Shown: piece after piece, positions 19,255 to 63,881 of the stretch
How the letters are laid out: every line of letters begins with the position of its first letter
How positions within the stretch are numbered: the first letter of the stretch is position 1
The notes under the pieces: generated by a model
The model's input: the letters and a program-made list of their open reading frames with translations, nothing else
Told to the model about the DNA's origin: nothing
The model's database searches: none
Position numbers and translations under genes: made by a program
Assembly (NCBI GenBank): GCA_028825265.1
Contig: JAPKAM010000003.1
Location: forward strand, 3,547 to 67,546
Source: Planctomycetota bacterium
Lineage (GTDB): Bacteria > Planctomycetota > UBA8108 > UBA1146
Length of the DNA stretch: 64,000 nucleotides
Direction: 5' to 3'

Positions 19255-21446
19255 CTACTGGCGGCCCTCGGCCAGTCCGGCCTCCTGAATTGCACTGAGC
19301 CGCGCATAGAGCCCCCCGGCAGATCGCAACTGTTCGTCGGTACCCTGTTCGACGATCCGTCCGCCATCGAGGACCACCACACGGTCGACATCTCGCACCG
19401 TCGAGAGGCGGTGAGCCACCACCAGCACCGTCCGATCCTCCATCAGTTGCTGCAGCGCCCGATGGACTCGCTGCTCACCCTCCGAATCGAGGGAAGCGGT
19501 CGCTTCATCGAGAAGTAGGATCGGAGCATCCTTGAGAATCGCCCTGGCGATGGTGATGCGTTGACGCTGGCCGCCAGAGAGGCGGTCTCCTCGCTCACCG
19601 ATGACGGTGTTGTAGCCGCTCGGCAGAGCCTCAATTTCTTCATGGACCGAGGCGGCTCGGGCCGCAGCTTCGATCTGATCATCGGTAGCCGCGGGATTCC
19701 CACCCCCGATGTTCTCCTTCACCGTCGAGTGGAATAGAAACGGTTCCTGGCCAACGATGGCGATCTGATCCAGCAGTGAGGAATGGGTCAGATCTCGATA
19801 TTCGATGCCATCGAAATAAATCTCGCCACCGCTCGGTTCCCGAAACCTGGCCAGGATATCGAAGAGGGTCGACTTCCCCGATCCTGAAGGACCGACCAGC
19901 GCCACTCTCTCACCCTTTTTGATCGTCAACTGAATGCCATCGAGCGCAAGACCAGCATCTGCCGCATACCGGTGAGATACATCTCGAAACTCGATCGCAC
20001 GGCTGAAGGGAAGCATCGACCTCGCCTCAGAACCGTCCACCACCTGACGGGGAGTATCGAGAACCTCGAAGATCCGATCGGTCGCCGCCGACGATTCAGC
20101 GATGGTGGTCGCCATCCTCGCAAGGTTCTTGATGGGAGTGTAACAGGACAAAATCGCCGCCATGAACACTGCGAAATCACCAAAGGTCACATCTACGATT
20201 CCGTCGGTGATCACCCAACCCCCGGCAGCGATGGCGAATGCTGCGATCAGATTGTACAGCCCTTCGACCAGGCTTCGGCCCTTGGCCCGAGCCACCTCCG
20301 TACTGACCTGAGCACGACGGAGATTTTCTGAGGTTTTTTCAAATTCCTTTTGCCGCTGATCCTCGAGCCCGAAACTCTTCACCACCCTGATTCCAGAGAG
20401 CAACTGGGATAGGCCCTCGGTGGTCTCTCCTGCATGGGAAAGAGCCCCGCGGAAACGAGTCCGGACCTTCTTCGCCTGGCGAAAGACAGGGATCGCCAGC
20501 AACAGCAGCAAGGGGATCGCTGCCGCCGTCATTTGCCAGGAAGCGATGAAGGCCACCCCTAGGGAGAAGAGGATCGTCAAAGGACTCTGAAGGATTTCAC
20601 CGAACAGCAACTGTACCGATGCAGAAACGCTAGTCACATCACCGACCGCCCGCGAGACCACATCCCCGTGTCGACGCGATTCAAAATACTCCAGCGACTG
20701 ACACGAGAGGAAGCGGAACAATTGATTGCGAATATCGACCACCACCTGGATCCGCACTCGTTGTCCCAGGATGAGCCGGTAGAAACTACTGGTAGCCACG
20801 ACCAAAGACAGCGCAGCGATGAACAGAGAGACTGACCACAGTAGTTGAAGAGATCCGGTTCCCGGAAGTCCGTTCTGAATCAGAAGGTGGCCGGAACCGT
20901 CGATCTCCGCGATGACCGCACTGTCGGGAGAACGATCACCCGGGTCGATATCAAAACCACTCAATTGCGCTGCAGTGATGGACCTGATCTTGGCATCGAA
21001 GACACCATCCAGCCGGATTCTAGAGGCGCGAATATCCTGCACGGTACCGCCGTCGCGCAGTTGAGCGGTCACCAGAAAGGCCTGATCCCAGGCCTGATCC
21101 AGTTCGCCATCCAGTGGGTCATCCGGATCCACTGAAGGAAAACCGACCACCAGCGCTCCATCGATTCGAAAGCGAGATTCGATCCGTTCGGGTAACTGGA
21201 TGTCCCCCGGAAGATACGGCAACAGAAAGTCCTCAAACAGCGCCAGCGTGCGGCCACGAGACCCATCATCACTGGGGGAGATCACTCCATCGATGACCAG
21301 CCCGACCGCTCCCAGCCTGAGGCTGTTGGCGCCTGCGTAGATGCACATCAGCAGCAAGATGGCGATGATCGACTTGTAATGCGGGAAGGCATAGCCCAGC
21401 AATCGGCGGATTCCCGAAGATTTTTTCTGATCTTCAATTTCCATCA
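19255..21446 (-). CDS. ABC transporter permease/ATPase, MsbA-like lipid exporter
   Basis: Six-TM N-terminal half, Walker A GPSGSGKST, LSGGQRQRITIARAIL signature, Walker B LLLDEATASLD. Trimmed to MEIEDQKK..., which overlaps the upstream GT2 stop. Confidence 0.85.
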
Positions 21447-22388
21447 GGCCTCCTTCTCCAGACGAACTTCCCACGCCTTGGCCTGCTCGATGAAGATGTA
21501 CGCCGAGAGCAATACAGCAACGACGAATCCTGCCATCCCGTCTCGAAAGCCTCGGTCCTTGAAGTATCGCACCCAGAACATCGAAGCACTGGCTCGGAAC
21601 CAGGACCACTTCGACTGTGGCAGCATCGCTCTCTTACGCAATCCACCCACCTCGCCTCTGGCCAGTGCCTCGGCACTCTGACTGGTGTAGCGATTCATTC
21701 TCGAAAGGAAATCATGAATCGTCGGATGGGCGAAGTGCAATACCGATCCTGAAAGTTCACCGATGGGACCATCTACGATCGCTTCGGAGTGAATCGATCC
21801 AGGGGAATAGTCACCCAGCCCGGCTCTAAACAGACGTAAATGTTGATCGTCCCAGCCACCATGCTGAAGCCACCGCCCGAGCAAGTAGTGCTTGAACGGA
21901 ATTCGGAATCCAGATTCGGGGCGGTCGGACTGTAACAACTGTTCAATCTCCTGGCGCAGTTCATCCGTAACACGTTCATCCAGATCTAGCACCAAGATCC
22001 AACCTTCATGAATCTGATCCAGACCGAGGCGCCGGATATCCTCGATCAAACCCTCCCCTCTGGGAGCGTCGATCACCTCCACATCCGGACGTTGCTCGAA
22101 CCACTGGCGAGATCCATCCTCGCTGCCATGATCGATGACGACAATCCGGTCGGCCCAACCGATATTCTGCATCCATGGCTCGATGTTTTCCTTCTCGTTC
22201 AGCACAGCAGCCACCACCGACAGTGAAGCCGTTGGGACGAAGCGCTCCGAGTTGGAGACGGTCGTGGATCTGGATTGCGAGGACAATCGGCCTCCCTCCC
22301 CTGACACAGTCATCAGGGATACTCGTCGATGCTGCAGGTCGAGGAGGCGATCGTCAACCGGACCCGATCCACCGATCCACAGATCCAT
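21444..22388 (-). CDS. family 2 glycosyltransferase (LPS core type)
   Basis: LSVVAAVLNEKENIEP...VVIDHGSEDGS is a typical GT2 N-terminal DxD region. The start is probably internal. Confidence 0.7.
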   Translation of the reverse strand: MDLWIGGSGPVDDRLLDLQHRRVSLMTVSGEGGRLSSQSRSTTVSNSERFVPTASLSVVAAVLNEKENIEPWMQNIGWADRIVVIDHGSEDGSRQWFEQRPDVEVIDAPRGEGLIEDIRRLGLDQIHEGWILVLDLDERVTDELRQEIEQLLQSDRPESGFRIPFKHYLLGRWLQHGGWDDQHLRLFRAGLGDYSPGSIHSEAIVDGPIGELSGSVLHFAHPTIHDFLSRMNRYTSQSAEALARGEVGGLRKRAMLPQSKWSWFRASASMFWVRYFKDRGFRDGMAGFVVAVLLSAYIFIEQAKAWEVRLEKEA

Positions 22389-22400
22389 GAGATCATCGCC

Positions 22401-25154
22401 TCATCGGTCCCTTTTTCGCTTCTTGCGGCGTGCCTCGATCAATTTCTGGAAATCTGCGGACCGATGATCGGCGATCTCAGGGGTCTCCCCTTGCCGCTCA
22501 GAATCCACCTTCGGTTCGACCGAAGAGGGTTGAGCCGCTGGTTTCCTTCTCGCCGCGATGGCCCTGCGGACTAGAGGTGGCGTATCGGTGGCTTCCTTGG
22601 CGATGGGTTTCGAGGATCTCTTGAGCACTGGAATCTTCAACTGCACCCGCCGAGTAACGATGTCAAAAAAGAACAGGAACAATCCCACGATGGCCAGTGG
22701 ATGCCACAATGGACTGCGGTCCTTTCGTTGCGGTAACGAGCGGTCAAGAAGATCATCGGCATCGGTCAAGATCCTACCGCCGGAAGCTTCAGCAATTCTC
22801 TTCAACAGTTCTTCGTTACTTTGAAGTACCCGAAATTCTGCAGGATATCCAACCGAGATCGACTTCGTCTGACCACCGATATGACCCTGCCCATCATCGT
22901 GATTGACATGGATCAGATACGACCCTTCCTGGGCTGCATCGAACTTCCCAATGTAGCGACCAGGAGCGACCTGATTCACAACGATCTTGCGCTCCGATTG
23001 GTCCGGGCTGATCAGAGTGCACTCCAGTTCCATCCCATCGAGGAATCTCCCGTCGGGATCGATGGCATCGACGATCAGTTGAGCTGAATCTCCTTCGATC
23101 GAGTGGGAGATCTCGAGGACTCCCTCTTCCAGTTCTCGGGAGATGGAGCGCACCAGTTGGGTCCAGAAGGTGGAATTCCCACTCCACCCTTGCCACTGCT
23201 CACTCCACCGAGCTCTCGCATCGCTCATGAAGGCTGCAGTTTTCCCGATGCCGTGCCTTCCGAGCGCCAGCAATGGGTCCTCTTCCTGATTGACCAGTAC
23301 CAGATTCGAGAGCGGCTTGATGGTGGTCAACACGATCCCATGGAGCGGCGGGAAGCCGGACTCCAGTCCTCGAATCGGATCTGCAATCTCGACGATGGTC
23401 GGGGTGAATGTCTCCTCGGTTATCAAATTCCGTTTCACCTCCAGCGCTTCCCTGAAGAAGATCTGTGGCAAACTGGCTGGATGATCGACAAAGTAAAATC
23501 GGCCCCCAGTCGAACTCGCGATCTTCTTCATCGTTGCAGTAGCCGACGCTCCTGAATGGGGCTGGATGCATATGGTCGAGACGGAAATCCCAGCCTGCGC
23601 ATAGGCGTCGAGCAACCTCATTCCTGGTTTGACAGGATCACCGTCGGAGATGATCACCACATGTTTCGAGTAGCTGTTCGAGCGAAGCAAACCCAGTAAA
23701 GCCATCTGCATCGATGCCCCGAAGGTCGTCATATCTGCCGGCTGGAGAGTGTTGATCTTCTTCTGGATCTCCCCCCGATCTCCCAACGGTCCCAGAGGAA
23801 TACCCCAGTAATCGACTCCTCCGCTGTACACCAGTACACCGAATTCATCCTTGGGGGTCAGGGGTTCGATGGAAGCGAAGGCGATTCTTCTCGCCCACAT
23901 ATTTCCCAGTTCGAATTCGCAGGTGTGGAGAATCACCGCCAACGCCCCGTTGGGCAGATTTTTGCGCTGCTGGATATCCATCTTCACCGGTAGAGCTTTT
24001 TCGACCTCGGTCCCCCTCCATCCTCCGGCTCCAAAGGAGTTGGGTCCCCCGACCATCAGCAATCCCATGCCCGTGGTGTGTACCACCTTTTCAAGCATGG
24101 CGATCCGCTGAGGATCGATGCTGAATGCGGAGATATCGTCGAGAATCAACGCTTCGATCCCGAAGTACTCCTCTGGCTTCAGTGGAATTTGATCAGGGGT
24201 GAGCCGCTGAACGTTGATATTTCCGGAGGTGAGTAACCTCTCCAGGGTTCGATCAGGATCCTCGCTCACGAGCACCACTCTCGGCGGGTGAATGGTTCTC
24301 ACCAGCCCGATCCCAAAATTGTTCTGCTCCAGCGAATCCAGTCCCGGCTCAGGATGCACCGAAACATTCAGCCGCTGAAGGATGGAAGTTCCTCCATCCA
24401 AGGTGAATGCGATCCGATTTCTTCCTGCCTCGAGGGTCATTGGGCGGCGCTCGATGATTCCTTCACCATCGGCAAGAACCACCGTTGCGGACCCAGCAGA
24501 ACTGGACCAGATGATGGAATCGACAGAAAATACCTGACCTGGCCTGACCGTCTCAGGAGCCTCGACGCTCTCCATGATCACTTCTCTGGGGTGGTCGTAT
24601 CTCACCGGCATGACATCGACAGCGATTCCCGCGGCCGCGAGATTTTTGGCCTCTCGAACCGGATCTCCCTCGGTTGAGTTCCCGTCGCTGATCAAAACGA
24701 TGCGGCGCGAACCACCTGGCGCACTGCCCTCCAGAGCACTCGCCGAATATCTCAACGCTGCAGCGATGTCGGAACCGCTTCGATCGATCTTGACCGAGGT
24801 CCCAGAGCCTAGCCTCATCGCCATCGGTTGTTCTTGTTGCTGGTCCTTGGCAAACGAAATCAACGACACCTGGTCCGGATATTCGAGAGTCCCGAGACGC
24901 CTCGATGTCTTTGAAATCGCCTCATCTGTGACGAGGCGTGGCACGGATGCCGAGAGATCTCTCAACACCAGAATACTGAGGCCATCTCCACCGGTCAGGT
25001 GAACCATCCTGGCCAGCGCCAACACCAGTGCGGTGATCGCCATGCCACGAAGTACCAGTGCGGTTTTTTTCACGGCATTCGGTAATCCCGCTCGACTACC
25101 TGTAGAGATGAAAACCAGCGAAGCCAGCAGCGGGATTCCTGCCAGAAGCCACAT
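22401..25154 (-). CDS. two-anchor membrane protein with BatA-type N-terminal double-TM domain, VWA domains and ThuA/GATase1-like domain
   Basis: MWLLAGIPLLASLVF...ALVLRGMAITALVLALA (BatA_N / two_anch pattern), VWA-like RRIVLISDGNS and HVVIISDGDP, C-terminal TM LAIVGLFLFFF plus a basic tail. Trimmed to the Met preceding the double-TM region. Confidence 0.7.
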   Translation of the reverse strand: MWLLAGIPLLASLVFISTGSRAGLPNAVKKTALVLRGMAITALVLALARMVHLTGGDGLSILVLRDLSASVPRLVTDEAISKTSRRLGTLEYPDQVSLISFAKDQQQEQPMAMRLGSGTSVKIDRSGSDIAAALRYSASALEGSAPGGSRRIVLISDGNSTEGDPVREAKNLAAAGIAVDVMPVRYDHPREVIMESVEAPETVRPGQVFSVDSIIWSSSAGSATVVLADGEGIIERRPMTLEAGRNRIAFTLDGGTSILQRLNVSVHPEPGLDSLEQNNFGIGLVRTIHPPRVVLVSEDPDRTLERLLTSGNINVQRLTPDQIPLKPEEYFGIEALILDDISAFSIDPQRIAMLEKVVHTTGMGLLMVGGPNSFGAGGWRGTEVEKALPVKMDIQQRKNLPNGALAVILHTCEFELGNMWARRIAFASIEPLTPKDEFGVLVYSGGVDYWGIPLGPLGDRGEIQKKINTLQPADMTTFGASMQMALLGLLRSNSYSKHVVIISDGDPVKPGMRLLDAYAQAGISVSTICIQPHSGASATATMKKIASSTGGRFYFVDHPASLPQIFFREALEVKRNLITEETFTPTIVEIADPIRGLESGFPPLHGIVLTTIKPLSNLVLVNQEEDPLLALGRHGIGKTAAFMSDARARWSEQWQGWSGNSTFWTQLVRSISRELEEGVLEISHSIEGDSAQLIVDAIDPDGRFLDGMELECTLISPDQSERKIVVNQVAPGRYIGKFDAAQEGSYLIHVNHDDGQGHIGGQTKSISVGYPAEFRVLQSNEELLKRIAEASGGRILTDADDLLDRSLPQRKDRSPLWHPLAIVGLFLFFFDIVTRRVQLKIPVLKRSSKPIAKEATDTPPLVRRAIAARRKPAAQPSSVEPKVDSERQGETPEIADHRSADFQKLIEARRKKRKRDR

Positions 25155-25180
25155 AGGCTGGTCGAAATCGATGGGCACGC

Positions 25181-26104
25181 TCACCTTGATTCCCCCGGAA
25201 TTGCAGATGTCACCACCCGGTGATTTCCCGTGTCTGCAATCAATAACCTGGGAACGGGTCCAGTTCGAGAGACCGCCACACCGCGGGGCTCGCTGAGTTG
25301 TCCGGTACGACGACCTGTTCCCCCTACCACTGCCACCAACGAACCGTCGGCCCTGAATCGTTGCACCCGACAACCAGCCTTATCGACCACCACAAAACTC
25401 CCGTCTCCGACGGTATCGATGTCAAATGGGGTATCGAACTGACCCGCAGCTCTCCCCGGTGCCCCGATGGTCTGGAGGTGTTCACCATCGAGGGTGAATC
25501 GAAGCACCCTGTGATGACCGCAATCAACCACCAGCACCGTTCCATCCACGTCGATGGCCAATCCTTCAGGCCGGAGAAACTGGCCTGGACCGTCGCCTCG
25601 TTCTCCCCAGACCTTCATCAACTGACCGTGGCGATCGAAGCGGAAGATACGATCGAGTTCGCCGTAGGATGCGACCAGGATCGAACCGTCTGCAGCAACA
25701 TCGATACCTCGGACCAGTTCCAGCCCCACATCTTCGCCAAATCGGCGCACTTCGTTGCCATCGATGTCGAACTCGATGATTCTCATGTAGTGAGTATCAG
25801 CGACCAGCAGCGTTCCCTCAGAGGTGCTACACAGATCGATCGGATGACCTGCAGACCATTCCGGAAGCATCCACACATCCTTCAACTCTCCTGCGACATC
25901 GAACCGTTGAGCTCTACCGCTGCGGTCGATGACGATGCACTGCTGCTGCGGCAGGGCTTCGATCGCCCTCGGCTGAAAGAAACGGCCAACACCCCGACCC
26001 GGGCCTCCGATCAATTCCACATTCTTCAGTGGTTTGGTATCCACCGAGGAGGAGACGCAGCAGTTGATCAGCAGCAGAGCCAACAGCCAGATCCTGGATC
26101 GCAT
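25181..26104 (-). CDS. secreted NHL-repeat beta-propeller protein
   Basis: Signal peptide MRSRIWLLALLLINCCVSS, then repeated LVADTHYMRIIEFD / LVVDCGHHRVLRF / LIADTGNHRVV NHL-like blades. Confidence 0.7.
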   Translation of the reverse strand: MRSRIWLLALLLINCCVSSSVDTKPLKNVELIGGPGRGVGRFFQPRAIEALPQQQCIVIDRSGRAQRFDVAGELKDVWMLPEWSAGHPIDLCSTSEGTLLVADTHYMRIIEFDIDGNEVRRFGEDVGLELVRGIDVAADGSILVASYGELDRIFRFDRHGQLMKVWGERGDGPGQFLRPEGLAIDVDGTVLVVDCGHHRVLRFTLDGEHLQTIGAPGRAAGQFDTPFDIDTVGDGSFVVVDKAGCRVQRFRADGSLVAVVGGTGRRTGQLSEPRGVAVSRTGPVPRLLIADTGNHRVVTSAIPGESR

Positions 26105-26162
26105 GCAGGGCTCTCCTCTTGTGATTGAACGGGGACACACGAAGGTCGAGGACAGCGATCGC

Positions 26163-26447
26163 TCAGTCTTCAGTTCTCCCCTGGAGACGATCAAAGTAAT
26201 CTTGAGCCACTTGGCGAAGGGAGGCGGGAACTCGCTGGATCTTGAGTTCAGATTCTGCGATTCGAGAACCCGCTTTTACCGCCTGTCGCAGAATCGCCTT
26301 GGCCTCCCCCGATGGAGCCTCCCCTTCGACCAGCAGGGTCGCCACCGTCTGTCCCGGATGAGCTTTGCCTGGCAGTTTCTCGGGAGTCGACGAGGTCTCG
26401 CCATCCTTGGCAGATGGACTGGAACCGCCACCGAGACCCAGTTGCAA
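26163..26447 (-). CDS. small hypothetical protein (doubtful)
   Basis: 94-aa Gly/Ser/Ala-rich ORF. It is in the same frame as the upstream 431-aa ORF, separated from it by two TGA codons. Confidence 0.25.
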   Translation of the reverse strand: MQLGLGGGSSPSAKDGETSSTPEKLPGKAHPGQTVATLLVEGEAPSGEAKAILRQAVKAGSRIAESELKIQRVPASLRQVAQDYFDRLQGRTED

Positions 26448-26564
26448 TCCCGGGCCTCCGGCTAGGCCCGCAGCCGCGGATCCCTTCGACCCTGCTTTTT
26501 GTGTCTGTGTATGAACGAAACTTCGCTCACTGGAAGAACCCTGTCAGGTCCCTCCCTTGGCTTG

Positions 26565-27860
26565 TCAGGTTCCCGCCAGGCAAGCGGGGCAAATCTCCGG
26601 CGGCGGACCGTCGGGCCATTCCGAAGGCAAGGCGCTCAATTCTGCTTCGGTGAACTGGATCTGCTTTCGAGCATGATCGAGCAGCTCGCTCTCCCTCAGC
26701 AACTTGGCCAGTTGATCCAGTTGCTGCGACAGGTTCTGCAGATCCTCTTGCGATAACGCCTTCGCATCTTTCAACTTTGAACTCAATTGATCCGACAGTC
26801 CCAGAGCTTCCGCCAACTTTGCCAGATCGGCTCTCGCTTGTTGCCCCTTGGCACCGGCGCTCGCCGCAGCCTTGGCCAACTTCTGCAGTTCCTGCCCGGC
26901 CCGCCCCAGTTGCCCCTTTTGCAGGGCAGTCTGCAATTGCGTTGCGGCTTCAGAACCCGGGCTGTCCTTCTTCTGACCCGCCTGACGCACCCGATCCGCA
27001 GTCGCCCTCACAGATTTGAGTTCCGCTCGAGTCATGCGACTCGCCACCTGACTCCGATTCTTCTGGGCCCGCTCTAGTGCGCTCTTGCGTGGCGAAGTCT
27101 CCGGCGACCTGTGATTGGTCTTCGCCACCACTGGCTTCGGTTTGCGTGAGAGAGCCTTAAGCAGTTTCTGAGTTTCAGGATCGATCTGATGACGTTCCGC
27201 TAACTGGGTCACATCTCTCAGTCGTCGCTCCAGTGATGCCACTTTTCTGGCGCTGCGATCGGTTTCCTTTTTCCTACTCAACTTCTCTTCTTCAATTCCC
27301 AACAAGTCATAGGTCGGGAACGAAATGGCAGCGAGGCACGCGCAGAGCGCCACGACTACACGCCACGGGTTTCGTGGCTTCCCCAGTTCGATCGCGCGTT
27401 GTAAGTCGACCCGCTCCGCCACCTGTGCGGCATCGACCATGATCTTGTCGGTCGCCTCATCGCTGAATCCTTCGCCACGTGCCAGCAGTGAGGTGGAGAT
27501 GGTCTGAGGAATCTGCTCGCCCCGCTCCGCTTCGACCGCCTCGCCAAGACGCGACTTTCGAACCGACAGAAATGCTGCGGCGATCACCAGTAAAAAAGCA
27601 CCGAGAGGAAGGGTCGTCTCCAGCGTCTCGCTGATGGCCAGACTGAACAGGCGCTGCAATAGAATCAGAATCGCCCACGAGATCAGCGCCAGCGCCAAGG
27701 CATTACTGGAATGCCCCATCACCTCACGAAGTCTCCTTCGCAGGCGGATTCGACTCAGAAGTCGATCGACGGGATCCCGATTCGAACTCATCCGGTTCTC
27801 TTTCCCATACCTGGGTGCCTGACAGCCCTCTTGTGAACCCGTAGATGCCCCGCTGGCCAA
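26565..27860 (-). CDS. membrane-anchored coiled-coil protein
   Basis: TM helices (ALALALISWAILILL, LGAFLLVIAAAFL, VVVALCACLAAISF) followed by a long Lys/Gln/Ala-rich heptad-like region. Confidence 0.5.
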   Translation of the reverse strand: MASGASTGSQEGCQAPRYGKENRMSSNRDPVDRLLSRIRLRRRLREVMGHSSNALALALISWAILILLQRLFSLAISETLETTLPLGAFLLVIAAAFLSVRKSRLGEAVEAERGEQIPQTISTSLLARGEGFSDEATDKIMVDAAQVAERVDLQRAIELGKPRNPWRVVVALCACLAAISFPTYDLLGIEEEKLSRKKETDRSARKVASLERRLRDVTQLAERHQIDPETQKLLKALSRKPKPVVAKTNHRSPETSPRKSALERAQKNRSQVASRMTRAELKSVRATADRVRQAGQKKDSPGSEAATQLQTALQKGQLGRAGQELQKLAKAAASAGAKGQQARADLAKLAEALGLSDQLSSKLKDAKALSQEDLQNLSQQLDQLAKLLRESELLDHARKQIQFTEAELSALPSEWPDGPPPEICPACLAGT

Positions 27861-27905: not shown

Positions 27906-28478
27906 TCAATCGGGAGAGAGACCTCGATCAGCACCGCTTTCACCCATCCAGGCTTCCAGATCGACGCCGAGCGAGTCTGCCACACGATTGATGTGATTGA
28001 AGAAACCGATCACATGAACCAGTTCCAGAATGGTGCCGTCATCGAATCCAACTCGTCGAAGCGCATCGATGTCGGATGCATCCATCTTCGAGGGGGAGCG
28101 AGTCAACTTCTCGGTAAAAGCGGCGATGATGCGGGCTCGTTCATCGAGAGTCTCTGGTCCGGACCGGACCGAATCGACGAGATCTTCACTTCCAGGAAGC
28201 GACTCCAGATCTCGCAGGTGTGAGAGCACTCAGTAGTGGCAGTCGTTGTACTGACTCGTGAGCACCGCGACCCATTCGCGTTCTGCTCGCGTCAGTCCTG
28301 ATGTCCCGTGCATCAGACGAACGTAGAGTTCGAGAAAGGGTTCCAGAAGGTCGGGCCGCGGAGACATCACCTGAATGATCTGGGCGACTTCTCCCGTTCG
28401 AGATCGAGATCCTGCATAGATCTTTTTCAGGATTCCGCTTTCATCTTGCTCTTCCGAAAGGGGTTCGATCCACGCCAT
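27906..28478 (-). CDS. AhpD/carboxymuconolactone-decarboxylase-family peroxidase-like selenoprotein (in-frame TGA read as Sec)
   Basis: Track ORFs 28230..28478 and 27906..28229 are contiguous in one frame, joined by TGA (plus-strand tca 28230-28232). The joined sequence reads ...LTSQYNDCHY-U-VLSHLRDL, i.e. N-x-C-x-Y-[U]-x-x-x-H, the AhpD-like NxCxYCxxxH motif with Sec at the second Cys position. A hairpin starts about 15 nt downstream. Joined length of about 190 aa matches the family. Confidence 0.7.
28178..28214 (-). promoter_or_regulatory. candidate SECIS-like hairpin downstream of in-frame UGA
   Basis: mRNA CGAGAUCU-(21 nt loop GGAGUCGCUUCCUGGAAGUGA)-AGAUCUCG, an 8-bp stem beginning about 15 nt 3' of the UGA. 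Confidence 0.4.
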
Positions 28479-28487
28479 CGGTTTCTC

Positions 28488-29576
28488 CTATCCACTCGCC
28501 GGAGGAGTTGCTCTCCTCGCCAGCATCCGATCGACCAGCACCAAGGCCATCATCGCCTCGACGATCGCCACTGCACGGGGCAGTACGCAGGGGTCGTGGC
28601 GACCTTTCCCCTCGAACTGGATCCCTTCCCCCGATCGATTAACGGTTTCTTGCGTGGTACCGATGGTCGATGTGGGCTTGAACCCAACCCGCAACCAGAG
28701 GGGAGCACCGCTGGTGATCCCGCCCTGCATTCCGCCCGATCGATTGGTCCGTTGGCCAATATTGCCAAGTTCATCGGAAGTGAAACTGTCATTGTTTTCG
28801 CTTCCAGTACGACTGGTAGCGGCGATTCCGTCCCCCAGTTCGAGCGTCACCGCTGCCGGAATCGACAACATGGCCGCCCCGAGCAAGGACTTCATCTTGG
28901 CAAAGACTGGATCCCCCCAACCGGCCGGCACTCCGCGAGCCACCACTCCGACCCAGCCGCCGAGGCTATCCCCCGTCTCCCTGGCCTGTTCGATCTGGTG
29001 AACAAAAGCGGTACTGGTGGCGGGCACCGGACAGCGAACCACCGACGCCTCTACGCGCTGGGAATCGACGGTCGAAGGGTCGACCTCTGCTCGGATCCCT
29101 GACACTTCATCGACCCAGCCAACGATCTCGATGCCATACTCTCGGGCCAGCATCACTCGACACACGGCGCCTGCTGCGACTCGAGCGGCGGTTTCGCGCG
29201 CACTGGCACGACCTCCGCCCCTCCGATCTCGATGTCCGTACCGAGCTTCGGTGGTGAAATCGGCGTGACCAGGGCGATAGAGATCTGCCATCTCCTGGTA
29301 ATCTGCCGGACGGGCATCGACCGATTCGATCCAGATCGCCAGCGGCGAACCGAGGGTTCTTCCATCGAGGACACCGGAGAGGATTCTGGGCAGATCCGGC
29401 TCTTTACGCGGCGATGCGAGGTCGCCCCCCGGCCGCCGTCTCGCCAGATCCGCAGCGATCACCGGTTCAGAGACGGGGACCCCGGCGGGAAGCCCGTCGA
29501 TCACGACGCCAATTCCAGGGCCATGTGACTCGCCCCAGGTAGTGATGCGGAGAAACTCTCCGAAGGAACTGCTCAT
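28488..29576 (-). CDS. aroC: chorismate synthase
   Basis: MSSSFGEFLRITTWGESHGPGIGVVIDGLPAG N-terminus. The 177 upstream codons of the track ORF overlap mutY on the other strand and were discarded. Confidence 0.9.
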   Translation of the reverse strand: MSSSFGEFLRITTWGESHGPGIGVVIDGLPAGVPVSEPVIAADLARRRPGGDLASPRKEPDLPRILSGVLDGRTLGSPLAIWIESVDARPADYQEMADLYRPGHADFTTEARYGHRDRRGGGRASARETAARVAAGAVCRVMLAREYGIEIVGWVDEVSGIRAEVDPSTVDSQRVEASVVRCPVPATSTAFVHQIEQARETGDSLGGWVGVVARGVPAGWGDPVFAKMKSLLGAAMLSIPAAVTLELGDGIAATSRTGSENNDSFTSDELGNIGQRTNRSGGMQGGITSGAPLWLRVGFKPTSTIGTTQETVNRSGEGIQFEGKGRHDPCVLPRAVAIVEAMMALVLVDRMLARRATPPASG

Positions 29577-29588
29577 GAAAGGAATGTA

Positions 29589-30707
29589 GTGATTCCACGG
29601 CCAGATGCCAGCATCCTGGCACCACTTGAATCGCCGGAGGTCATCAGCATGGTTGCTCAAATCAGCACAGCACTGGCGGACTGGTACCGCCCAGAGGTCC
29701 AGAAACTGCCCTGGCGAGGTGTGGGAGACCCGTATGCGATCTGGCTCTCCGAGGTGATGTTGCAACAAACCCGAGTGGCGACGGTGATTCCCTACTGGAA
29801 TCGATTCATGAAAAAGTTTCCCGATCCAGCAGCGCTGGCCCAGGCACCACTCGGTGAGGTGCTCGAGATGTGGGCAGGCCTCGGGTACTACTCCCGCGGA
29901 CGCAATCTCCATGCGGCGGCGAGGCAGATCGTCGAACTCCACGACGGCTCCTTCCCTCGCGATCCGCAACGGATACGTCAGTTGCCGGGAATCGGTGAAT
30001 ACACCACCGCAGCGATCTGCAGCATCGCCTTTGATGAACCGCTGGCAGTGATCGACGGAAACGTCGAGCGTGTGCTCTGTCGCTACCTCTGCCTCGATGG
30101 AGATCATCGCAAGGGCGTCGCACGTACTCGCCTACGGGATGCGGCGCAGGAGGCGCTCGACAGAACACATCCCGGCGATCACAACCAGGCGATGATGGAT
30201 CTTGGGCGGACCATCTGCACTCCTCGATCTCCCGATTGTAGTTCATGTCCCCTCGCCAAGGGTTGCGGCGCATACGCCAGCGGTGATGCCACCCGCTGGC
30301 CTCGACCGAAGATCAAACGAGCAACCGAAGAACAGTGGTGGGCGACCGCTGTGGTGGTGACCCGCCAGGGAGTGCTGCTGTGGCCCAACTCGGGTGAGCT
30401 GCTCACCGGCCACATGGGCACTCCACTGGTTCGCCTCGATGGCCCGGATTCCGATGCGGATCTCGAATTGCGAAAGCTGTTCAAAACTCTCGCCCTCGAT
30501 CTCCCCGAGTTGATCGGCCATGCCGATCGATTCCAGCACGCCATCACATACCGAAAATTGCAGGTCACTCCGCTAGTCTATCGCTGGAACCGTAGCACTC
30601 CCGAAGGAGTCAAACTGCTGGCTCTCGATGCCGCCGATCGGGTCCCGGCATTGCATCGCAAGGCGATCGAGGCGAGCAAGGAACTACTGCTGGAAATGAC
30701 ATCATGA
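29589..30707 (+). CDS. mutY: A/G-specific adenine DNA glycosylase
   Basis: HhH-GPD region WRGVGDPYAIWLSEVMLQQTRV, Fe-S loop CTPRSPDCSSCPLAKGC, C-terminal NUDIX-like domain. The start may be internal (MVAQIST...). Confidence 0.85.
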   Translation: MIPRPDASILAPLESPEVISMVAQISTALADWYRPEVQKLPWRGVGDPYAIWLSEVMLQQTRVATVIPYWNRFMKKFPDPAALAQAPLGEVLEMWAGLGYYSRGRNLHAAARQIVELHDGSFPRDPQRIRQLPGIGEYTTAAICSIAFDEPLAVIDGNVERVLCRYLCLDGDHRKGVARTRLRDAAQEALDRTHPGDHNQAMMDLGRTICTPRSPDCSSCPLAKGCGAYASGDATRWPRPKIKRATEEQWWATAVVVTRQGVLLWPNSGELLTGHMGTPLVRLDGPDSDADLELRKLFKTLALDLPELIGHADRFQHAITYRKLQVTPLVYRWNRSTPEGVKLLALDAADRVPALHRKAIEASKELLLEMTS

Positions 30708-54438: not shown

Positions 54439-55092
54439 TCAGATCTTCTTTTTCGAGAGATACCAGCTTTGTGAATCGAGATCTGGATCTTCCAGGCGAC
54501 TCCTCGCCTCACTACTGGTCGCAGGAGGCGGAACCATCACATCATCTCCCGGGGACCAGTTGGCAGGGCAAGCAACCTGGAATTTATCGGCAGCCTGAAG
54601 CGCGTCGACGACCCGGAGAATCTCGATGAAGGAACGTCCGACCTCGGGAGGATACGTGATCATGGCACGGACCTTTCTCTCCCGATCGATGAAAAAGAGG
54701 GATCGGGCCGGAGCGGTGGGCGAGGTTGACGGATGGACCATGCCATAGAGCCTCGAGACCTCCTGGCTCAAATCGGCGATCAACGGGAAATTGATCGGCA
54801 CCCCCATCTTGTCCTCGATATCTCGCAGCCATGCGATATGCGAGTAAATACTATCGATCGATGACCCCAGCAATGCGACACCCCTGTCTTCCAGTTCCTT
54901 CTCGATCTTGGCGAATTCGATGAACTCGGATGTGCATACCGGCGTGAAATCCGCAGGGTGCGCAAACAAGATCGTCCAGCGGCCATCGTGCCAGTCAGAG
55001 AATCGGATCGGCCCATGAGTGGTGACGGCATCAAAATCTGGAGCGATATCCCCGAGCCGGATCGATCGCGGGTCATCTTCGTTCTGGTGCAT
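54439..55092 (-). CDS. 1-Cys peroxiredoxin (Prx6-like)
   Basis: FTPVCTSE peroxidatic-Cys motif and thioredoxin fold. Confidence 0.85.
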   Translation of the reverse strand: MHQNEDDPRSIRLGDIAPDFDAVTTHGPIRFSDWHDGRWTILFAHPADFTPVCTSEFIEFAKIEKELEDRGVALLGSSIDSIYSHIAWLRDIEDKMGVPINFPLIADLSQEVSRLYGMVHPSTSPTAPARSLFFIDRERKVRAMITYPPEVGRSFIEILRVVDALQAADKFQVACPANWSPGDDVMVPPPATSSEARSRLEDPDLDSQSWYLSKKKI

Positions 55093-62864: not shown

Positions 62865-63881
62865 ATGAAACCCCCCGGAAAGGCAGCGGATTCTATGAAC
62901 TGCGGCGGTTCCTCGCAAGGGCTCAAAGATGATCAATCCTCTCTTCCAGAAGTCCAGAGCTGGCTCGACTACCTGTTGGTCGAACGAGGTCTGGCAGCCA
63001 ATACCCTCGCAGCTTACCGCCGAGACCTGGTCGCCCTCGCCACCGCGGTCAGGCTTCAAGGGGTACAATTCCCCCATCAGGTGCAGATTCAACAGCTCCG
63101 GGAATACCTACAGGGCCTGATGGCCGCCGGGGCCAGCGCCAGCAGCCAGCGGCGTAGGATCTCCGCAATTCGTGGTTTTTTCCGCTTTTTGGTGCTCGAA
63201 AATCAACTCGATGAAAATCCCGCCGATCCGTTGGTCTTTCCACGACAACCGCAGCGATTGCCCCGAACCCTATCCATCGAAGAGGTCAATCGCTTGATCG
63301 AGGCCACCGCCGTGGACAATCCAGTAATGGCCCTGAGAGATCGAGCCATCGCTCAACTGCTCTACAGCTCTGGAATGCGAGTTTCGGAACTGTGCGGACT
63401 GCGCTGGAGAGATTTCAAGACCGAGGGCAAGTACCCGCTGGTTCGTTGCCATGGCAAGGGAGGCAAGGTCAGGCTGATTCCCATCGGAGATCGAGCCAAG
63501 GCGGCGGTGCAGGATTACCGGGCACACCTCGAGGCGGATGCACCGGCGCTGGTCGACCACCTGTTCGTTTCGACCACCGGCCGCCAGATTCACCGCAGAA
63601 GCGTCTACGCCCTGCTGGCCCGTGCGGCTCAGATCGCAGGGATCACTCAGGGGGTCAACCCACACCTTCTGAGGCACTCCTTCGCCACACATATCCTCGA
63701 AAACAACACGACTCTGCGTGAGTTGAAGATCCGCGAAGGCTCCGATTCGGTACCTGCAGATGCGCTACCTCACCTACAGCACCTACTGGGCCATGCCAGC
63801 ATCCACACCACCGAGATCTATACTCATGTCGATCGTGAGCAGTTGAAATCGGTACACTCGCGCCACCATCCTCGACCCTGA
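62865..63881 (+). CDS. xerC: tyrosine recombinase XerC/XerD
   Basis: N-terminal core-binding domain, catalytic R...HS..R...LLGH...Y (LRHSFATH, LLGHASIHTTEIYTHV), with a ~19-aa insertion before LLGH. Confidence 0.85.
   Translation: MKPPGKAADSMNCGGSSQGLKDDQSSLPEVQSWLDYLLVERGLAANTLAAYRRDLVALATAVRLQGVQFPHQVQIQQLREYLQGLMAAGASASSQRRRISAIRGFFRFLVLENQLDENPADPLVFPRQPQRLPRTLSIEEVNRLIEATAVDNPVMALRDRAIAQLLYSSGMRVSELCGLRWRDFKTEGKYPLVRCHGKGGKVRLIPIGDRAKAAVQDYRAHLEADAPALVDHLFVSTTGRQIHRRSVYALLARAAQIAGITQGVNPHLLRHSFATHILENNTTLRELKIREGSDSVPADALPHLQHLLGHASIHTTEIYTHVDREQLKSVHSRHHPRP

Follow-up and report, generated by a model that had tools for sequence, protein, structure and literature searches.

The stretch of DNA analyzed here (the window) comprises 64,000 nt of contig JAPKAM010000003.1 from the Planctomycetota bacterium assembly GCA_028825265.1 (positions 3,547 to 67,546 of the forward strand). 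On its minus strand, two open reading frames (ORFs) of 82 aa (28230..28478, with an ATG start) and 107 aa (27906..28229) follow each other in the same frame, and their sole separator is a TGA triplet at 28230..28232. An initial annotation had described this arrangement and proposed that the TGA encodes selenocysteine (Sec) in an AhpD-like protein; direct reading of the sequence confirmed the coordinates. The joined frame (minus strand, 28478..27906) runs from the ATG at 28476..28478 to a TGA stop at 27906..27908 and contains 190 codons, including the predicted Sec83. Its translation reads ...LTSQYNDCHY-TGA-VLSHLRDLESLPGSEDLV..., with ...QYNDCHY-TGA-VLSHLRD... as the motif region. An AGGAG ribosome-binding site (28485..28489, minus strand) is located 6 nt before the ATG and overlaps the TAG stop codon (28488..28490) of the preceding gene, aroC. 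The start of the protein, M-[AP]-W-I, is kept in all homologues. Judging from comparative sequence data, it is very likely that minus-strand positions 28478..27906 constitute one gene, whose product would be an AhpD-like thiol/selenol oxidoreductase of 190 residues, and that its UGA at 28230..28232 is decoded as selenocysteine.

The split-ORF layout alone carries no meaning. A mechanical scan of the window, the GC content of which is 58%, yielded more than 150 same-frame ORF pairs parted by one TGA, and such chance pairs are attributable to the GC-rich DNA. The AhpD-like pair stands out because a hidden Markov model (HMM) match spans the TGA and because the TGA is kept in all relatives. For the profile searches, Cys was written at the UGA position of the joined protein. 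The NCBIfam model TIGR01926 ("peroxidase-related enzyme") matched with 131 bits (cutoff 81.8) in one stretch, covering residues 9-172 and profile positions 7-173 of 178, and thereby crossed the UGA (residue 83) without a break. The assignment of the ~190-aa product as AhpD-like in the initial annotation was thus upheld by a single match above the cutoff. The AhpD core domain (TIGR00778) was recognized with 37.6 bits (cutoff 27.8), and the Pfam CMD domain (PF02627) with 30.6 bits (cutoff 23), the latter over profile positions 1-50 of 84 only. With regard to a function as carboxymuconolactone decarboxylase, no pca genes were found among the annotated neighbors, and the CxxC/U motif is suggestive of the redox branch of the AhpD type. 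Two matches to other models were set aside. Sestrin/PA26 (PF04636) gave 41.5 bits, yet merely over profile positions 21-167 of 445; the PDB entry 5dj4 (sestrin) was also matched, and the PA26 match reflects the AhpD-like fold common to the sestrin N-terminal domain. The model NF041238 (AhpD_rel_CFYUT, alkylhydroperoxidase-related (seleno)protein) reached 56.4 bits, far short of its cutoff of 175.

A PDB search aligned 2oyo (E 2.8e-25), 2pfx, 6k40, and 3c1l with residues 9-172, in each case across the UGA. Because these sequence matches reach E values of ~1e-25, we conclude that the AhpD-like protein is a single domain extending over both ORFs. The four structures, designated "uncharacterized peroxidase-related protein" or "putative antioxidant defense protein" (2oyo, 2pfx, 3c1l) and "alkyl hydroperoxide reductase AhpD" (6k40), likewise have one AhpD/CMD-fold domain with the motif N-x-C-x-Y-C-x-x-x-H in register. 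They are ~30-40% identical to the window protein and differ in having Cys in place of the UGA, as displayed in the printed alignments of 2oyo (NRCLYCAVSH) and 2pfx (NKCFYCLVAH). A full-length Cys form from the protein database (P0002, NNCNYCTQAH) also has Cys at this position. The motif N-D-C80-H-Y-U83-V-L-S-H87 is in register with the TIGR01926 family, and C80, position 83 (C or U), and H87 form invariant columns of our family alignment (A1). The respective codons lie within 28218..28241 on the minus strand (Cys80, 28239..28241; His87, 28218..28220), and within the redox motif C80-H-Y-U83 the in-frame TGA takes the second place. The alignment and the PDB homologues therefore agree with the earlier proposal that the TGA replaces the second Cys of C-x-x-C...H, and the Sec-for-Cys signature is apparent from five Cys forms (P0002, 2oyo, 2pfx, 6k40, and 3c1l).

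In the protein database, the gene is represented only by its 107-aa C-terminal piece ("hypothetical protein OSB09_00645", Planctomycetota metagenome-assembled genome, MAG), and relatives appear as fragments of 82-83 aa and 54-57 aa. Gene callers thus split the gene, as had been predicted. To sidestep this bias, relatives were sought at the DNA level. All 11 loci from reference MAGs, which belong without exception to Planctomycetota and are 42-83% identical, have TGA at the motif codon, and conservation continues downstream of it. A metagenome scan with peptide patterns that excluded the UGA position returned the best 80 of 445 relatives; TGA occupies the motif codon in 79 of these 80, and in the remaining one (L089) the motif was not located. 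Additional relatives (L093-L099) read NDCHY-TGA as well. Altogether, TGA is present in every locus with a readable motif, amounting to ~95 loci with 37-83% identity. Since the closest 80 metagenomic relatives with a readable motif are all Sec forms, the protein databases are largely devoid of this clade. One hydrothermal-vent contig from ENA (L092, 598 nt, source of P0003) was discarded as an inverted chimera, in which the 3' half of the gene is fused in reverse-complement orientation to its 5' half; it gives rise to a false 130-aa database protein.

Downstream of the UGA, the initial annotation had noted an 8-bp stem (cgagatct/agatctcg). Such a stem is indeed present, beginning 15 nt past the UGA; it is, however, not a single 8-bp stem but the lower part of a two-part hairpin of 39 nt and 16 bp (28177..28215, minus strand). 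With the U of the UGA as nt 1, the hairpin extends from nt +18 to +56. The lower stem of 9 bp pairs nt 18-26 with 48-56 (28207..28215/28177..28185), and the upper stem of 7 bp pairs nt 31-37 with 41-47 (28196..28202/28186..28192). The two stems are offset by a 5' bulge of 4 nt (GGAG), and the apical loop CUG (28193..28195, nt 38-40) lies 34 nt after the UGA. We compared this SECIS-like (selenocysteine insertion sequence) element with published criteria for bacterial SECIS (bSECIS) elements, i.e., a loop of 3-9 nt, an upper stem of 4-16 bp, a spacing between UGA and loop of 16-37 nt, a minimum free energy (MFE) of ≤ -7.5 kcal/mol, and a G within the first two loop positions (PMC13188914). With a loop of 3 nt, an upper stem of 7 bp, a spacing of 34 nt, and an MFE of -19 to -22 kcal/mol, the hairpin has the geometry of a bSECIS. 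It thus shares with the bSECIS consensus (E. coli fdhF type) the stem-loop inside the ORF, the stem, the loop size, the spacing, and the MFE, and it differs from the consensus in the absence of a G from the first two loop positions.

Several other tests support the hairpin as a selected structure, more stable than its peptide demands. In the window clade, 93.8% of the cells are paired, compared with 33-47% when the partner strand is slid. Two positions show compensatory exchanges, namely pair 33-45 (AU/GU/GC) and pair 36-42 (UA/GC), and RNAalifold, applied to seven clade sequences, independently returned the same hairpin with two compensatory pairs. The window sequence and its relative L012 encode the identical peptide ESLPGSEDL with 7 nucleotide differences, and each forms 16 of 16 pairs. 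Random synonymous recodings form 10 of 16 pairs on average and attain 16 of 16 in ~0.05% of the cases (about 5 in 10,000). When recodings were weighted by codon usage, the fraction at least as stable as the native hairpin was 0.0007-0.066 in six lineages.

Across the wider family, the position and the type of the hairpin vary. RNAalifold on all 87 family sequences at once returned no structure, a result explained by the different positions of the hairpin classes, and the analysis was then done by class. Family-wide covariation was seen for a shorter hairpin (+21..+40), in many cases with a GGUC-type loop, with 41 double-change cells compared with 15.3 in shuffles (0 of 500 shuffles reached 41). 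Most Sec-form relatives (L013-L091) carry such a short hairpin ~25 nt after the UGA, which is either GACCUCC-GGUC-GGAGGUC or has a CGKGCY loop of 6 nt; ACGGAGA-GGA-UCUCCGU and GGACUUC-GGUCU-GGAGUCC occur in others. The window clade, in contrast, has the long two-part form with a CUG or CCG loop at 34 nt. As the hairpins differ in this manner, there are at least four structurally distinct SECIS solutions within the AhpD-like family.

Several results speak against a SECIS at this site and against Sec decoding in this organism. The MFE of the hairpin is unremarkable with respect to dinucleotide shuffles (z = -0.61), and a sliding 50-nt MFE analysis of 85 homologous genes showed the post-UGA stretch to be no more stable than other regions. 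Because both tests were null, stability was dropped as evidence and replaced by covariation and synonymous recoding. The covariation sample of the window clade comprises only seven sequences, and some of the pair-preserving changes (AGU/AGC, GAA/GAG) are uninformative, being the sole synonymous options. The upper stem is weakly conserved in L098. The loop violates the G rule in the window and in L001-L004 (CUG) as well as in L012 (CCG); only L098 (GAGCCA) conforms. Rfam contained no SECIS match, neither in a gathering-level search of the window nor in a permissive search of the gene. Pfam annotation of the ~48 window ORFs did not detect selA, selB, or selD, which the initial annotation had implied for the genome; the fetched loci lacked them too, and no tRNA-Sec was found in the 64-kb window, which lacks any tRNA, or in 49 fetched loci. 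Some of these points can be put into perspective. A subset of bSECIS elements does not fit the consensus model (PMC13188914), and therefore the missing loop G weakens the designation as a canonical SECIS, not Sec decoding as such. The comparison covered the window and the fetched loci, and the Sec machinery is assumed for this genome; complete sets of Sec-insertion genes have been reported in several Planctomycetes (PMC4807772). In our view, the post-UGA element is a conserved structure with good support, and its role as a SECIS is no more than plausible. The earlier proposal of a SECIS at this place accordingly holds for geometry, spacing, and energy, and it does not hold for stability taken alone or for the CUG loop, which lacks the consensus G. 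A sub-threshold Rfam match to mir-375 on the opposite strand (28254..28297, plus strand; 21.6 bits, gathering threshold 46.7) is regarded as chance.

UGA terminates 30 of the 40 Pfam-supported ORFs in the window. As it is the normal main stop codon here, decoding at codon 83 must be site-specific, and its role as the dominant stop also speaks against an alternative to selenocysteine, namely programmed recoding or readthrough in which a near-cognate or suppressor tRNA, for example, inserts another residue such as Cys or Trp, the hairpin serving as a generic stimulator. Such a scenario would fit the lack of observed Sec machinery in the window and the fetched loci as well as the deviation of the loop from the bSECIS consensus. 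It does not account for a UGA exactly at the redox Cys position, which is the hallmark of Sec/Cys pairs, or for the canonical GGUC-loop hairpins at SECIS distance in most family members. Moreover, the AhpD-like family is already catalogued as a selenoprotein family (PMC13188914, PMC2398784), and the neighboring gene 2, described below, carries canonical SECIS hairpins at a distance of 21 nt downstream of its UGAs. We therefore rate the insertion of a residue other than Sec as very improbable.

Relative to the closest relatives in the same frame, the ratio of nonsynonymous to synonymous substitutions (dN/dS) is 0.11-0.13 upstream of the UGA and 0.37-0.49 downstream of it, and the family-invariant residues H87, F160, N161, N164, and R165 are kept in the downstream half. 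Such in-frame purifying selection is at odds with a pseudogene, i.e., a dead gene whose TGA arose by mutation of a Cys codon (TGC or TGT) and whose 3' half would now be eroding. In a single genome, one TGY-to-TGA change would suffice to produce the same picture, and the NCBI annotation of just a 107-aa hypothetical fragment would suit it. The identical TGA in ~95 independent loci makes this explanation extremely unlikely, the more so as the relatives are not assembly duplicates, having different sequences and originating from different samples.

Equally slight is the chance that translation really ends at the UGA and that the ORF behind it is a second gene, translated separately from a GTG into a polypeptide that may associate with the first: although the window has GTG directly after the TGA, which makes reinitiation formally possible, this codon is ATC in L001-L004, the first in-frame start in all relatives follows 17-51 codons 3' of the UGA and thus past the invariant His/SH motif, no start codon is conserved in the downstream half, no ribosome-binding site precedes it, and the split would run through the helix that bears the active-site C-x-x-C, within a fold of one domain. 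The conserved two-gene arrangement that the initial annotation had named as a possible counterargument was thus not seen. Taken together, selection on both sides of the UGA, the ATC codon, and the late starts exclude the pseudogene and two-gene readings. Sec insertion at codon 83 is the preferred interpretation.

According to this interpretation, SelB with Sec-tRNA(Sec) would be recruited by the hairpin (nt +18 to +56) as the ribosome reaches the UGA, and would deliver Sec at codon 83. C80-x-x-U83 together with His87 would then form a redox center that cycles between the selenol/thiol and the selenenylsulfide state. By analogy with Cys-form AhpD proteins, this center may reduce hydroperoxides directly or re-reduce a peroxiredoxin-type partner. 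AhpD of M. tuberculosis is an AhpC-reducing alkylhydroperoxidase with a C-x-x-C...H proton-relay motif, the second Cys of which has been described as the nucleophile. We take this nucleophilic Cys to correspond to the position of Sec83. Canonical AhpD and the window protein have the AhpD core domain (TIGR00778) in common. Unlike the M. tuberculosis gene, the window gene is not located beside ahpC but next to aroC, and its product belongs to the subfamily TIGR01926.

The AhpD-like protein of the TIGR01926 type with a CxxU motif is a listed prokaryotic selenoprotein family (PMC13188914). In the GOS data, "AhpD-like 1" (COG2128, CxxU) is the fourth most abundant selenoprotein family, with 299 Sec and 902 Cys forms (PMC2398784). 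The window protein resembles this family, known from GOS and the Sargasso Sea, in matching the same HMM family above the cutoff, in the CxxU motif with Sec in second place, and in a length of ~180-195 aa; a SECIS-type hairpin likewise lies inside the coding region after the UGA. The host differs, being here a marine Planctomycetota MAG lineage. Selenoproteins have already been reported in Planctomycetes (PMC4807772). Thus, the AhpD-like gene adds a member to a catalogued family, and its sole unusual trait is the non-consensus SECIS loop. Its main value lies in the correction of the annotation, since the family is called as two fragments or as "hypothetical protein" in Planctomycetota MAGs. It would also mark an uncultured marine lineage as a Sec user.

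Next 3' of the AhpD-like gene, the minus strand contains an ORF of 431 aa without a Pfam match (26565..27860), which ends with ...PPPEICPACLAGT-TGA. A motif scan of unannotated gaps, otherwise returning mostly noise, exposed an open frame past this ORF. Beyond the first TGA, the frame reads QAKGGT-TGA-QGSSSERSFVH... and stays open until a TGA at 26163. The resulting gene 2 (26163..27860, minus strand; stop TGA 26163..26165) would encode a candidate double-Sec protein of ~565 aa, with an uncertain start at either TTG 27860 or ATG 27791. Its architecture comprises N-terminal transmembrane segments, a long coiled coil, the cluster CPAC-LAGT-U-QAKGGT-U, a Gly-rich linker, and a conserved domain at the C terminus. 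The two in-frame TGAs correspond to residue 432 (26565..26567; TGA #1) and residue 439 (26544..26546; TGA #2). Both are present in all 18 related loci examined, including those with tails just 34-47% identical, and the spacing between them amounts to 6, 7, 8, or 12 codons among the relatives. In alignment A4, U#1 falls into an invariant Cys column, and U#2 is opposite Cys in three relatives (P0021, P0030, and P0037). For the 126-codon tail, dN/dS values of 0.10-0.16 relative to close and 0.22-0.33 relative to distant relatives indicate purifying selection. The length of every indel in the linker is a multiple of three, and the tail lacks a conserved start codon.

Each TGA of gene 2 is followed by a hairpin. 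Hairpin 1 (26532..26555, minus strand; 10 bp, loop GACA) is the SECIS candidate for TGA #1, and its loop lies 19 nt after this TGA. Hairpin 2 (26511..26530, minus strand; 8 bp, loop AGUU) is of the canonical bSECIS type, and its loop lies 21 nt after TGA #2. In the window clade, the second UGA sits in the apical loop of the first SECIS-like hairpin. Both hairpins exceed the stability required by the encoded peptide, as judged by the synonymous recoding control, and RNAalifold recovered both. Two relatives (L093 and L103) have stems of other sequence and the same structure; the second hairpin of L103, GGACGC-GGUC-GCGUCC, retains the 21-nt spacing, and a further relative (L104) has GGUC-loop hairpins exactly 21 nt after each UGA. 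In contrast to that of the AhpD-like hairpin, the loops of gene 2 fit the bSECIS consensus, with AGUU or GGUC 21 nt after UGA #2 and GACA, UGACCC, or GGUC 18-22 nt after UGA #1. On the basis of these sequence features, the gene 2 product is a strong candidate for a double-Sec selenoprotein, and it supports Sec decoding in the organism independently of the AhpD-like gene. Counting the two conserved UGAs of gene 2, this 2.3-kb stretch seems to hold at least three sites where UGA is read as Sec.

The most divergent loci with the double TGA were L104:133-250 (tail 34% identical) and L103:850-960 (tail 47%). The L103 locus shows a frame change of 1 nt within its Gly-rich, low-complexity linker, between the UGA region and the tail; either an assembly error or decay of this copy could account for it.

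The databases contain gene 2 as fragments only, i.e., N-terminal pieces ending with CLAGT and tails of 100-119 aa. No NCBIfam or Pfam model matched the gene 2 protein (nothing but noise at E ≤ 1), and the full-length Cys-form relatives are without a Pfam family. A sensitive search with the tail uncovered full-length relatives of 520-690 aa. They share the architecture of gene 2, in that transmembrane helices and a coiled coil are combined with a Cys-rich cluster, a Gly-rich linker, and a domain with ...IPxxY...YF at the C terminus. Of the 48 representatives matching the tail domain (hit list P0012-P0040), roughly half are tail-only proteins of 80-140 aa. Both of those that were checked (P0012 and P0016) are located downstream of double-TGA motifs, and the Sec forms of the gene 2 family may therefore extend far beyond the window clade. 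As gene callers split the gene everywhere, the family would have escaped notice.

The accessible part of the PMC13188914 selenoprotein catalogue holds no entry corresponding to gene 2. The double selenoproteins listed there include an FmdB-family protein (UxxU), a metal-binding protein (UxxU), and MbdU (CU); like these, the gene 2 product would have two Sec replacing Cys in a Cys-rich, zinc-ribbon-like cluster. It differs in the pattern CxxC-x4-U-x6-12-U, in its ~565-aa transmembrane and coiled-coil architecture, and in the placement of UGA #2 in the loop of the first SECIS, none of which was found in that part of the catalogue. The broader proposal is that of a conserved two-gene selenoprotein pair, composed of the AhpD-like gene and an uncatalogued, membrane-anchored coiled-coil protein of ~565 aa with two Sec in a zinc-ribbon-like CPxC-LAGT-U-x6-12-U cluster and tandem SECIS hairpins; we judge it about as probable as its opposite. 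Gene 2 may matter more than the AhpD-like gene. It apparently represents an undescribed double-Sec family with a compact tandem-SECIS layout, of interest for selenoproteome surveys, and it offers a natural case of a Sec codon inside the loop of another SECIS, which is of use for the mechanics of SelB and SECIS.

The block 3' of gene 2 (22401..26194 and 19255..22388, minus strand) is common to all clade relatives. It encodes an NHL-repeat protein, a 990-aa VWA and GATase1-like protein, a GT2 glycosyltransferase, and an ABC exporter. In view of this conservation, gene 2 may be functionally tied to a Bat-like VWA-type envelope cluster rather than to the AhpD-like gene. That the AhpD-like CxxU protein acts as a dedicated redox partner of the gene 2 protein is pure speculation.

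A scan for promoters and terminators between aroC, the AhpD-like gene, and gene 2 revealed nothing above chance. Linkage to ahpC was not found, the neighbors of the AhpD-like gene being aroC and gene 2. The only peroxiredoxin in the window (54439..55092, minus strand) is of the 1-Cys type (AhpC-TSA and 1-cysPrx_C) and unlinked, 26 kb off; it is a possible redox partner of the AhpD-like protein. Near the window end, an XerC/D-like tyrosine recombinase (62865..63881, plus strand; Phage_integrase and N-terminal SAM-like domains) is encoded, with no tRNA or evident mobile element nearby. The gene content of the window is that of an ordinary chromosome and includes MoeA, MetRS, CTP synthase, EF-P, MutL, FolD, SecA, and MetK.

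Directly upstream of the AhpD-like gene, separated by a 9-nt gap, lies aroC for chorismate synthase (28488..29640, minus strand; PF01264, 402 bits). The order aroC-AhpD-like gene is kept in L001-L004, L012, and L093-L099. The listed aroC ORF (28488..30107, 539 aa) is over-extended at its 5' end, because the PF01264 domain begins only at residue 186, and the true start probably lies near 29570-29640. The extension overlaps a convergent plus-strand gene for an HhH-GPD protein (EndoIII/MutY-like; 29589..30707). A 264-aa plus-strand ORF antisense to aroC (28308..29102) is probably spurious.

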